Source of the DNA: a virus
Strand: one strand, 5' to 3'
Virus record (IMG/VR): IMGVR_UViG_3300037993_001242
Coordinates: 96,001-160,000 of that record
Length of the DNA: 64,000 nucleotides
Shown piece after piece: positions 3,935 through 57,257 of this stretch. The stretch's first letter is position 1; the number at the start of each line of letters is the position of its first letter. Made by a program: the position numbers and the translations under genes. The notes below the pieces were generated by a model. That model was not told where the DNA came from. It saw only the letters and a list, made by a program, of their open reading frames with translations, and ran no database searches.

Positions 3935-5563
3935 GTGGCGTATATGGCCAACGCGCCCTTGAATTATTTTCCGCTGCCGGTGCCCCGCAGCAAGCAAATC
4001 AGGAGTCTGGAGTTCATCCAGCGCGCACTGGATTTGAACTACACCGACATTGTTGTCGCCGCGCCCACGGGCATCGGCAAAACCGGGATCGGTGTGGCGG
4101 TCTGCCTCTGGGCGGCGCAGGGCACCGTGCCGAATTACAAAGCGGGCGGCTACTATCTGGTCACCCAAAAGCTTTTGCAGGATCAACTGGAGAACGATTT
4201 CCCGCGCTATTTGGTTCCCCACCGGGACAAGGGCTGCTCACTCAAATCCGCCATCGAATATGAGTGCCCCAAATACACGACTTGCATGGCCGGAAGCCGG
4301 ATGCCCGAAGGACTGCGCTGTCACGAGCGCGCCGCCGGTTTTTGCCTGTATACAATCCAAAAAGAAAGATTTTGCCGTGCGCCGGTGGCCATCACCAACT
4401 ACCCGTACTTTTTTACCGAACGCACATACGTCAAACAACTGGTGCCACGGGCCGTGCTGGTGGCCGACGAGTGCCACACGCTGGAAAAACAAATCCTCAA
4501 CTTCGTGGATGTTCATATCACCCGCGAATCACTGGAGGAATGGACGCCTTTTTTGCGCCCGGTGCCAGCCATGCCCACCATCGAGGAGTTTGCCGTCTGG
4601 CTCAAAACCAAGTACGTCGGCGCGGTTGAAGACCGCCTGTCCATTTTGCAGGAAAACCTGATCACCGACCACGCCAACCAAAAACTCCAGATCGAGTTCA
4701 ACAAGGCTGAAAATCATTTGAACCGGGTCAAGGCCGCCATTGTGGACATCCTGCGGGCACCTGACAACTGGGTGTACTGGCAGGAGGAAAAAGACGGTCA
4801 GTTGGAGAGCATCGCCAAGCCGCTGTTCGCCCAGTCTTTCGTCAAGCCGCTGCTTTTGGAACCGGCGCGCATCCGCATTTACATGTCGGCCTATCCGGGG
4901 CCAAAAAAGGTCTTTTGCCGCAATCTCGGCCTTGATCCGGCCAAAGTCGCCCGCCTCGACCTCAACAGCACATTCCACGTGGAACATCGTCCGATCCATC
5001 TGCTGCTTTGCGGCTCCATGGGCCGCAAAAGCATTGATGAAACGACGCCGCGCCTGCTGCGGGTAGCGGACAAAATTCTGGCGGCGCATCCCAACGAAAA
5101 AGGGCTGATCCACTGTCACAGCTACAAACTGGGCGACACCATCTTCAAGTATTTGAAAACGACCGAGCACGCCAAGCGCATCCTGTACCCGCGCAAAGCC
5201 GACGAGCGCGAGGAAGCTTTCAAAAAGCACACTGGGAACGGCGCGCCGACCGTCCTGCTCAGTCCCTCCATGACCGAAGGTTTCAGCCTCGATGACGATC
5301 TGGCCCGGTTCCAGATCATTGCCAAAATACCTTATCCCAATCTGGGAGACAAACAGGTCGAAGCCAAAAAGGACATCGATCAGGAATGGTATACCCTGCA
5401 AACCATCACTGCCATCGTACAGGCGTGTGGGCGCATCGTGCGCTCCGACACCGACCACGGCGTGACCTACGTGCTCGACGGCGATTTTATGCCCCTGTTT
5501 GAGAAAAATCCTGAGTTCTTTCCGAAGTGGTTCCAAGACGCTTTTGTCTGGCACAACCGATAA
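3935..5563 (+). CDS. dinG: DinG/YoaA-family ATP-dependent DNA helicase
   Basis: APTGIGKT, Cys cluster, DECH, SMTEGFSL and QACGRIVRSDTDHG motifs. Confidence 0.9.
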   Translation: MAYMANAPLNYFPLPVPRSKQIRSLEFIQRALDLNYTDIVVAAPTGIGKTGIGVAVCLWAAQGTVPNYKAGGYYLVTQKLLQDQLENDFPRYLVPHRDKGCSLKSAIEYECPKYTTCMAGSRMPEGLRCHERAAGFCLYTIQKERFCRAPVAITNYPYFFTERTYVKQLVPRAVLVADECHTLEKQILNFVDVHITRESLEEWTPFLRPVPAMPTIEEFAVWLKTKYVGAVEDRLSILQENLITDHANQKLQIEFNKAENHLNRVKAAIVDILRAPDNWVYWQEEKDGQLESIAKPLFAQSFVKPLLLEPARIRIYMSAYPGPKKVFCRNLGLDPAKVARLDLNSTFHVEHRPIHLLLCGSMGRKSIDETTPRLLRVADKILAAHPNEKGLIHCHSYKLGDTIFKYLKTTEHAKRILYPRKADEREEAFKKHTGNGAPTVLLSPSMTEGFSLDDDLARFQIIAKIPYPNLGDKQVEAKKDIDQEWYTLQTITAIVQACGRIVRSDTDHGVTYVLDGDFMPLFEKNPEFFPKWFQDAFVWHNR

Positions 5564-19840: not shown

Positions 19841-20080
19841 ATGGAAAAAACAATCCAAGAGCGTGTTCAAACGATTTTAATCGACCAACTGGGCGTTAAG
19901 CCAGAACAAGTGACACCAGAAGCCGATCTCGTCAAAGACTTGGGCGCAGATGAACTGGACATCATTGAAGTGGCCATGGCCGTCGAAGAGGCGTTCAGCC
20001 TCGAACTGCCCGACCAAGACCTTGAGAAAATCAAGACCGTCGGCGACATGGTTCAGTACATCCAAAAGCGACTTGCATAA
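19841..20080 (+). CDS. acpP: Acyl carrier protein homolog lacking the phosphopantetheine Ser (DELD for DSLD)
   Basis: [21 protein letters not shown]...[33 protein letters not shown]. Confidence 0.9.
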
Positions 20081-20084
20081 ATTT

Positions 20085-20261
20085 ATGGGAAAACCTGACG
20101 ATACTGAAATTGAAACTGTCGAGGAGCACCGCCATGACTGCGGTTGTGACTGCGGCTTTGATGACGAACCAACAACCGCCAGAAGCTGGGTCATATATGC
20201 TGTTGCCACCATCGGCGTGCTGATCTGTCTCGGCATCCTCTGGTACCTCCACAACCACTGA
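20085..20261 (+). CDS. Small membrane protein
   Basis: HDCGCDC then one TM helix. Confidence 0.55.
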   Translation: MGKPDDTEIETVEEHRHDCGCDCGFDDEPTTARSWVIYAVATIGVLICLGILWYLHNH

Positions 20262-20266
20262 CCATT

Positions 20267-20743
20267 ATGGGAAAACAAGACGAAACTGACGAGGCCGATG
20301 TGCCCAACACCACCACACCACCTGAACCGGCGGAACTTGCTTACAGTGCATACTGCACCATCCGCAACTGGAAAGCCGTCAACGGCGATCCGCTTCCGCT
20401 TTGGGCCGATGTCACGGAAGACATCAAAGAAGGCTGGCGCGCCGCTGTTAAAGCTGTCCTGCCTGCGAAAGAAACCGTCGTAGATAAAGGCGAGACCCTG
20501 CGACTGGCAACCAATCCAGCAGATGTGGAATTGCCCTTGCTCACCGAGGATCAGATCAACACCATGGATTTGGAGGAAGCTTGCTCCCAACTTGGCAACC
20601 GTGTATACAAGGTCTGCCTGCTGTACGAGCAACTTGAACACCGGGGCGTCGTTCGGGGCAACGGACATCACGCGGCACAGCATATTGCGAAGCTGGCTGA
20701 AACAGAGTTACGCGAACGCTGGATTACCAAACCGGCGGCATAA
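20267..20743 (+). CDS. Hypothetical protein
   Basis: YSAYC...GDPLPLWADV...GWRAAV. Confidence 0.6.
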   Translation: MGKQDETDEADVPNTTTPPEPAELAYSAYCTIRNWKAVNGDPLPLWADVTEDIKEGWRAAVKAVLPAKETVVDKGETLRLATNPADVELPLLTEDQINTMDLEEACSQLGNRVYKVCLLYEQLEHRGVVRGNGHHAAQHIAKLAETELRERWITKPAA

Positions 20744-20786: not shown

Positions 20787-21251
20787 ATGGGCTATAGAGA
20801 CTACAGTCACGAAACATACACCGCCCGTATGCGGGAGCATACGGAAAAAGGAACCGATCCGTTTACGCACAGTGCGGAAATCCGCTCTGGCCACACGGAG
20901 ATGAAGGTTCACGAAAAACTCGATCCGTCCAAGAAAAACAAGGCGGGCCGGAACATCCGGGAAAGCTTTGACAGCGACACCCATCCCGAAAGTCACCCTG
21001 TTGCCGTCATCTTCGACGTAACCGGTTCCATGGCGAGCGTTCCCCGCATCTTCGTGGAAAAACTCGGCACCCTCATGGCGACGCTGGTCAAGAAGGACTT
21101 CCTCCAGCATCCGCACATCCTGTTCGGTGCGGTCGGCGACGCCACCGTCTGGATCGACGCCGAAACCCACCTGCGCTCGCACGGCGATCAGATTTTTGAT
21201 CTCACAAAAGTTCGAGCCTTTTTGACTGCCGCCCGGCCCTTCATAAAATAG
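20787..21251 (+). pseudogene. vWA-like protein, apparently truncated after GAVGDA
   Basis: RESFDSDTHPESHPVAVIFDVTGSM...ILFGAVGDAT, then unrelated 34 aa and TAG; only the first half of the vWA fold. Confidence 0.6.
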
Positions 21252-21486
21252 TCCCGCCAACTCTTTTTGTAATGCTGATTTTCAACAGCTTACAAATTTC
21301 TCGCCGCCATCTCGCCGTTGTAAACATTGGTAATTTTGCCCGAATCCGCTGTCAACAAATTATTTTAGTTCAATGTTGACGCGGGTTTTATGACTTAAAA
21401 CCAGCCCGTTCTTAACTTCCATCAATTATCGTTTGGTAAAATAGTGTGACGGTTGAACGAATCAACCGTACGACAGAAAGACAAAT

Positions 21487-56784: not shown

Positions 56785-57257
56785 CACTTCAAACGGTCGG
56801 GCAGAGCCTCCTCGTACTGTGGATTGCCCTCGATGACGCGGTACATCTGCCGCACGACCATCAAAAGCTGGCCCAGCTTGTTTAGACCTTTGCCGTCGCA
56901 TACACCCCAGAACGTGTCACCCCACGTATTGCCCTCGATCAATTCCTCGTTGCCTGTGGCTAACAGCTTGGCCCGCAGATCGGCATCAAAGAATTTCTGC
57001 GTCAACAGGTCGGCCATAACCTCCAGCCTGACCTTGTTCCAATGGGGATTAAAATCTTCTCTGGGAATGATTTTGCCCAGCTTTTTAGCGATGCCCGGCG
57101 AAGACGCCAACAGGATTTTCTCACGCCACTGCCGCTTCTCGGTTTTAGCCGCCTGAAACGCATGTTCAACACTAGGGTACAAAATGCCATCCAGATAAAC
57201 GGATGCCGCGTAAAAATTAGACAAAAACCGGTAATCACCTTTGAACTCGCTGATCAT
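56784..57257 (-). CDS. ybiA: NADAR (YbiA-like) protein
   Basis: FLSNFY, SVEHAFQAAK, LLATGNEELIEG, DTFWG, GLNKLGQLLM. Confidence 0.9.
   Translation of the reverse strand: MISEFKGDYRFLSNFYAASVYLDGILYPSVEHAFQAAKTEKRQWREKILLASSPGIAKKLGKIIPREDFNPHWNKVRLEVMADLLTQKFFDADLRAKLLATGNEELIEGNTWGDTFWGVCDGKGLNKLGQLLMVVRQMYRVIEGNPQYEEALPDRLK

Follow-up and report, generated by a model that had tools for sequence, protein, structure and literature searches.

A phage acyl carrier protein with glutamate in place of the phosphopantetheine serine, and its serine-bearing sister

The window analyzed here is a stretch of 64,000 nucleotides from a virus record in IMG/VR that is 199,098 bp long and has an estimated completeness of 82%. 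It contains a short open reading frame that codes for an acyl carrier protein (ACP, Table 1). This protein matches the Pfam PP-binding family (PF00550) with an E-value of 1.8e-14 and 54.2 bits (cut-off 20.8), the NCBIfam equivalog model for AcpP (TIGR00517) with 89.8 bits (cut-off 70.45) and NF002148 with 99.5 bits (cut-off 71). It also matches solved ACPs of 108 distinct sequences, the best of which is the Aquifex protein 2ehs (E 3.5e-24). In every alignment to the solved ACPs, and exactly so in 2ehs, residue Glu38 of the phage protein falls on the serine of the GADSLD motif. The codons at 19943-19960 read GGC GCA GAT GAA CTG GAC, which translates to GADELD. The phosphopantetheine-bearing serine is Ser36 in E. 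coli ACP, with the phage numbering offset by +2. The preliminary description of this DNA, made from the letters alone, had called the protein a typical AcpP with GADELD in place of GADSLD, and the PF00550 and TIGR00517 matches together with the alignment to 2ehs agree with this reading. No second DSL-like serine could be found in the 79-residue protein. Since the acceptor serine is missing, this Glu form cannot take up 4'-phosphopantetheine or an acyl chain at the canonical site, where attachment is chemically excluded, in line with the earlier proposal of a non-acylatable ACP whose sole phosphopantetheine site is a glutamate. Because the Glu form nevertheless passes the cut-off of the AcpP equivalog model, annotation pipelines would label it "acyl carrier protein" and list it as an auxiliary lipid-metabolism gene.

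Table 1. Features of the ACP locus. Positions refer to the window; for parts of the ACP gene, dN/dS and the ratio of nonsynonymous to synonymous changes compare the Glu phage with its Ser sister.
Feature	Position	Strand	Description or evidence
HD_4 (SpoT-type HD) gene	15697-16326		
Fic gene	17649-18080		PF02661 at 1.4e-05
Kinase-like gene	18719..19837	+	J-domain-like and atypical kinase-like; phrog_3043 at 4.5e-37
Segment without counterpart in L118 (ACP and 58-aa ORF)	19829..20251	+	~423 bp; blastn
Ser-less ACP gene	19841..20080	+	79 aa, ATG-to-TAA ORF
ACP codons 1-28, helix I			dN/dS 0.11; 8:11
ACP codons 29-61, end of loop I, helix II, loop II and helix III	19925..20023	+	dN/dS 0.80; 24:8
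ACP codons 62-79, helix IV			dN/dS 0.04; 1:5
Glu38 codon GAA	19952..19954	+	column of the phosphopantetheine Ser, as aligned with 2ehs and further solved ACPs
58-aa ORF	20085..20261	+	acidic Cys/His-rich N-terminus, one predicted membrane helix; orphan
158-aa gene	20267..20743	+	phmmer: L118 6e-49, L120 1e-23, L121 2e-16, each right after the kinase-like gene
Scar of ~2.65-kb deletion relative to the sister	21146..21365		window 21146-21365 = L011 7299-9950

The exact Glu-form protein is present on 16 contigs. Over 2-8 kb, contigs that carry it match the window at 99.9-100% identity (0-3 mismatches), and the carriers of the glutamate are one near-clonal phage population that was recovered from many samples. 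A megablast search of the region against cultured phages returned no match.

The closest homolog of the Glu form among 5.8 billion proteins is a protein of the same length with 71% amino acid identity and an intact GADSLD motif (P0002). It is encoded at loci L011-L015, on contigs of 86-100 kb which are about 87% identical (86.6%) to the window at the DNA level. The two ACP genes are syntenic. Both sister phages share the order HD_4, receiver, Fic, a 198-aa protein, kinase-like, ACP, a 58-aa protein and a protein of 158 or 164 aa, so that the Ser ortholog agrees with the Glu form in position, length, gene order and the co-inserted 58-aa ORF. The HD_4 gene in this order is consistent with the earlier remark that the phage encodes a ppGpp-hydrolase-like protein.

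The codon in the serine column is TCA in the sister phage, and TCT and TCC in two outgroups (P0003 and P0004). Therefore, the change was from TCA to GAA. This exchange consists of two adjacent substitutions, and its sole sense intermediate is alanine (GCA). The TIGR00517 score is 106.8 bits for the Ser sister versus 89.8 for the Glu form. The preliminary description proposed a search for S-to-E conservation among close phage homologs. This expectation failed, because the nearest syntenic homolog retains the serine, and a diverged ortholog carrying glutamate was not found among the 5.8 billion proteins. To judge from these sequences, the replacement of serine by glutamate is a recent change in a single lineage and not the hallmark of a conserved decoy. 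Since all Glu copies are near-clonal, they offer no measure of conservation or of purifying selection since the serine was replaced. In an uncultured phage, such a single-lineage change is worth less than a decoy conserved across the clade would be.

More distant members of the clade were found by a protein search with the kinase-like protein, the homologs of which are 84%, 65% and 63% identical; a search of viral contigs for loci related through the kinase-like protein alone gave no match. In three such relatives (L118, L120 and L121) an ortholog of the 158-aa gene comes immediately after the kinase-like gene, with neither an ACP gene nor the 58-aa ORF in between. By blastn, window positions 19400-19828 align with 4682-5110 of L118, and positions 20252-20445 continue at 5112-5305. 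The absence of both genes from these relatives indicates that they arrived later than the kinase-like gene, and we interpret the ACP gene and the 58-aa ORF as a recently acquired two-gene cassette, comparable to a moron insertion. A 12-nt direct repeat, TTATGGGAAAAC, occurs at 20082-20093 and 20264-20275. One copy spans the start codon of the 58-aa gene and the other that of the 158-aa gene; both proteins open with MGK. This repeat looks like a junction duplication or insertion scar, and the start of the 58-aa ORF may derive from the 158-aa gene. The 58-aa ORF is confined to the Glu phage and its Ser sister (88% amino acid identity, dN/dS 0.24). It belongs to no Pfam or PHROGs family and has no other homolog among the 5.8 billion proteins. 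A complex prediction for the ACP and the 58-aa protein (score 0.00, run without controls) speaks neither for nor against a contact.

The kinase-like gene stops 3 nt upstream of the ACP start and is 92.5% identical to the copy in the sister (dN/dS 0.07). Its match to the Pfam Pkinase family (0.0072) remains below the cut-off. The preliminary description had pointed out that the ACP gene sits directly after a kinase-like gene. The position is as described, but the functional link is not supported, since the ACP gene is the later insertion; for the same reason we rejected a functional kinase-ACP operon. The kinase-like family comprises 168 homologs (E <= 1e-5), often with a DnaJ-domain Pfam match; in genomes of Actinomadura, Actinoplanes and Anaerolineales they bear the name "molecular chaperone DnaJ" or are called Ser/Thr kinase. 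The combination of a J-domain with a kinase-like domain is therefore a widespread architecture and not an invention of the phage.

Within the clade, the Fic gene was seen in no phages other than the two with the ACP cassette. At the Fic position, L118-L120 contain a DUF7695 gene (L118:3587-3946, L119:2724-3134, L120:2980-3342). A 135-aa minus-strand ORF that overlaps Fic in some assemblies is probably spurious. Downstream of the cassette (window 20787-21365; L011:6940-9950), the Glu phage lacks about 2.65 kb which are present in the sister and in more distant relatives. The deletion removed a PurA-like gene (PF00709, 3.2e-66), a 69-aa gene and all but the N-terminal third of a 336-aa phrog_2971 gene. 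What remains of the phrog_2971 gene is a 154-aa ORF that ends in an unrelated tail, whereas the sister phage keeps both the phrog_2971 and the PurA-like genes. No match to PF00709, the family of adenylosuccinate-synthetase homologs, is left in the 199-kb record.

Fourteen syntenic genes of the Glu phage and the Ser sister were compared for dN and dN/dS. The ACP gene has the highest values for both, with dN of 0.203 (others 0.017-0.107) and dN/dS of 0.28 (others 0.06-0.24). The changes are unevenly distributed, because codons 29-61 differ from the rest of the gene in their ratio of nonsynonymous to synonymous changes (Fisher p = 0.006, Table 1). Cellular ACPs are most strongly conserved in helix II. 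In these proteins the stretch from helix II to helix III changes least, whereas in the phage ACP the same stretch is the fastest-evolving part, yet its acidic docking residues are unchanged. With the two outgroups as reference, 11 amino acid changes could be assigned to the Glu branch (E6Q, K10Q, V14I, E15D, D32K, S38E, V42I, L44V, I56L, E59Q and A61L) and five to the Ser branch, which include I41A, V48A, S53H and D58E; seven are ambiguous. The asymmetry of 11 versus 5 is not significant (p = 0.21), and both the Ser and the Glu form must therefore be regarded as fast-evolving. The changes on the Glu branch are conservative or located on the surface, and the Glu-form gene contains neither a stop codon nor a frameshift.

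An AlphaFold2 model of the Glu form, based on a 34-row alignment, reached a pLDDT of 94.4 and a pTM of 0.82. The model contains helices at residues 5-17, 38-52, 58-61 and 67-78, and according to DSSP residue 38 is the first of helix II. It superimposes on solved type II ACPs with TM-scores of 0.91-0.96 and rmsd values of 0.6-0.7 A (Foldseek). By this prediction the Glu form adopts the normal four-helix fold of an ACP, and Glu38 opens helix II. Glutamate is structurally favorable in the first turn of a helix, so that the "phosphomimetic" role that had been suggested for Glu38 is possible but not required.

In E. coli ACP, the helix-II residues D35, D38, E41, E47 and E48 mediate docking on partner enzymes. 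According to the alignment, the corresponding acidic residues are all kept in the Glu form (D37, D40, E43, E49 and E50). Several of the variable positions, including 41, 48 and 61, line the acyl pocket in E. coli ACP. At these three positions the Glu form has isoleucine, valine and leucine, in contrast to the three alanines of the Ser sister. The bulkier residues are consistent with a core that no longer accommodates cargo. ACP-like domains of the Glu/Asp type also tend to be bulkier at positions 41, 61 and 70, in a sample that is not phylogenetically independent, and this association of bulky pocket residues with Glu or Asp is only suggestive.

Glutamate at the serine column is not restricted to this phage. 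In a set of 314 non-redundant ACP-like domains, 270 have serine and 22 have glutamate or aspartate. Glutamate is also the commonest residue among the 38 domains without serine in the top 150 library representatives (12 of 38), mostly in tandem ACP-like repeats. The 16 matches from named or catalogued phage ACPs comprise 13 with serine and three with glutamate, namely Serratia phage phiMAM1 (MAM_092, Ackermannviridae; motif DLWFDELD), the N-terminus of a protein annotated as "rIIB" in Aeromonas phage Aswh_1 (DLGLDELD) and a 636-kb uncultured phage. Further carriers of glutamate are the IMG/VR contigs L069 and L095 and the protein P0011, and all Glu forms read D-E-L-D. An IMG/VR census of ACPs (80 loci with 81 matches, 79 Ser and 2 Glu) is not to be read as a frequency; one of its patterns required DLG[AT]D[SE]LD.

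The other D-E-L-D phage ACPs resemble the Glu form in that glutamate opens helix II of an ACP-like protein encoded by a large phage. They differ from it in being only 39-47% identical or less, and they are scattered on a tree of 91 rows in which 64 of 88 inner branches are open, so that a single origin of glutamate is also compatible with this tree. Because the Glu form shares 71% identity with its Ser sister but only 39-47% with other Glu forms, its glutamate probably arose independently. In a limited search of the open-access literature we found no paper on phage ACPs without serine or on a function of the Glu forms. Published accounts count phage ACPs among the auxiliary genes whose function is unclear (PMC5463345; PMC13573597).

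We consider it an even bet, at a probability of about 0.5, that the Glu form is a still-selected, working ACP without cargo that acts by protein binding. On this account, an AcpP-derived protein would have entered the phage lineage recently as part of a small cassette, together with the 58-aa membrane ORF. In one of the two sister lineages, the cofactor serine would then have been exchanged for glutamate by the two-nucleotide change. The product would be a permanently cargo-less, negatively charged look-alike of ACP, and it would occupy the ACP-docking sites of one or several ACP clients of the host (or the phage). Textbook candidates for such clients are AcpS and glycerol-3-phosphate acyltransferase. 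The latter is a candidate because apo-ACP has been reported to inhibit this acyltransferase more strongly than holo-ACP does, and to stop growth (review PMC3896788). SpoT, the titration of which had been suggested in the preliminary description, is a disfavored client. According to the same review SpoT does not bind apo-ACP (PMC3896788), and we rejected its titration by the Glu form on this ground.

We found no match to PF01648, PF00109, PF00501 or PF01553 in the 199-kb record (82% complete), which is thus devoid of matches to a phosphopantetheinyl transferase, a ketosynthase, an adenylating enzyme or a PlsC-type acyltransferase. As no ACP-using enzyme appears in the phage record, any partner of the Glu form is probably encoded by the host. 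In both sisters, evolution is very fast and concentrated in the stretch from helix II to helix III, which suggests an ACP adapted to a single partner rather than to the fatty-acid synthase network as a whole. The switch from serine to glutamate between the sisters suggests either a role that depends little on the cofactor, or a role that shifted after the change.

Three observations argue for a protein that acts by binding. Helices I and IV are constrained across the Ser/Glu pair (dN/dS 0.11 and 0.04), glutamate recurs at the serine column of distantly related phage ACPs, and the route to glutamate took two steps although many single changes would have removed the serine. The earlier idea of a decoy or binding role is reasonable in the light of the five docking residues, the fold and the recurrence of glutamate; its expectation that glutamate is conserved did not stand.

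A more far-reaching version of this proposal is possible but doubtful in our judgment. The Ser and Glu sisters could represent a carrier on its way to becoming a cargo-less blocker that mimics the charge of holo-ACP and thereby obstructs a host ACP client. This client could be AcpS, an acyltransferase that takes part in making lipids or lipid A, or a defense or stress protein that senses ACP. The near-neutral to diversifying helix II-III face would then reflect an arms race with this client, and the repeated, probably independent changes from serine to glutamate would define an unrecognized class of anti-host proteins built on the ACP scaffold.

The strongest competing explanation, less probable in our view than a binding protein but one to be taken seriously, is that the ACP lost its function recently through a neutral or slightly deleterious change. 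The Glu form would then be a pseudogene-in-waiting that is still intact only for lack of time. Several of the findings above weaken the case for a binding protein and fit such a loss. The nearest ortholog keeps its serine, and the Glu state is confined to a single near-clonal lineage and unconserved in the clade. Within the region, both dN and dN/dS peak at the ACP gene, and the greater length of the Glu branch also fits relaxed constraint. The cassette is recent and dispensable, given that other members of the clade do without it. The 2.65-kb deletion, which lies 1 kb downstream in the same lineage, indicates that this neighborhood tolerates loss, and the TIGR00517 score has dropped by the amount given above. 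On the other hand, several single-base changes would suffice to destroy a serine codon, yet the phage arrived by two steps at the residue that is also found in other phages. Mere decay is also difficult to reconcile with the strong constraint on helices I and IV, with a reading frame free of stops and frameshifts, or with conservative changes in the hydrophobic core and the very high confidence of the AlphaFold2 model. Furthermore, the Ser branch has evolved fast as well (I41A, V48A, S53H, D58E), and so the high rate does not simply follow from the loss of the serine.

A far less probable explanation is that residue 38 is a site of modification or the mimic of one. The kinase-like protein or Fic could phosphorylate or AMPylate the serine of the sister, or Glu38 could be glutamylated in the manner of SidJ-type pseudokinases. 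This idea draws on the 3-nt distance between the kinase-like gene and the ACP start, and on a Fic gene with intact motif 1.8 kb upstream that accompanies the ACP in this clade. However, it is an argument from adjacency only. The kinase-like gene predates the ACP gene, which is missing at this place in L118, L120 and L121, and the constraint on the kinase-like gene is equally strong with or without a serine target (dN/dS 0.07).

Finally, we can dismiss a sequencing or assembly artefact at 19952-19954 with near certainty, because 10 further contigs from Logan, JGI and ENA assemblies contain the identical 240 nt with zero differences, GAA included, and because the sister codon differs by two adjacent bases inside an otherwise in-frame gene.

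A binding protein derived from an ACP would not be without precedent. A natural ACP homolog in which phenylalanine has replaced the phosphopantetheine serine is mACP of Plasmodium falciparum. This protein is reported to work through protein binding in the biogenesis of Fe-S clusters rather than in fatty-acid synthesis (PMC8547962). It resembles the Glu form as an ACP homolog without the phosphopantetheine serine. In contrast to the phage protein, it is eukaryotic and organellar and has Isd11-Nfs1 as its partner; the loss in the phage is very recent. Bacterial type II AcpP (2ehs; E. coli 1acp/1l0h) is closer to the Glu form in sequence (50-55% identity) and shares with it the four-helix fold and the acidic helix-II residues. 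Like apo-ACP, the Glu form has no cofactor. Unlike AcpP, which has the DSL serine, it can in all likelihood never become holo-ACP, and it is encoded in a phage record without fab genes or a phosphopantetheinyl transferase.

Since the exchange of serine for glutamate is repeated in distant phages and we found no paper describing it, there may be a class of phage ACPs that serve as binding or inhibitory proteins. The two phages described here, about 87% identical and with one serine and one glutamate between them, form a natural matched pair for studying this possibility. The case also dates the acquisition of the gene and shows fast evolution of the docking and pocket face, with the rest of the protein under constraint.

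Our searches also returned ACP-like domains in unusual contexts. The domain of Aeromonas phage Aswh_1 (L109, MH791414.1, about 56874-57047) is fused to rIIB, lacks the serine and matches over ACP residues 4-61; rIIB of Aeromonas phage ZPAH1 is likewise matched by ACP. The proteins P0034, P0040, P0104, P0033 and P0115 (161-425 aa) contain two to three tandem ACP-like domains with glutamate at the serine column. P0115, a 264-aa protein from a Chthoniobacterales MAG that is named acyl carrier protein, has one C-terminal Glu domain. Another group, P0006-P0025, consists of ACP-like proteins of 84-87 aa that match PF00550 and PF14573 and are apparently circularly permuted. They start with MGLDTVEL..., corresponding to helix II, and end with ...FVKDLGAD followed by the stop codon, which places the chain break exactly at the serine position. 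These proteins would likewise be Ser-less. One of them, P0018, is encoded on a 951-kb contig that is probably cellular.
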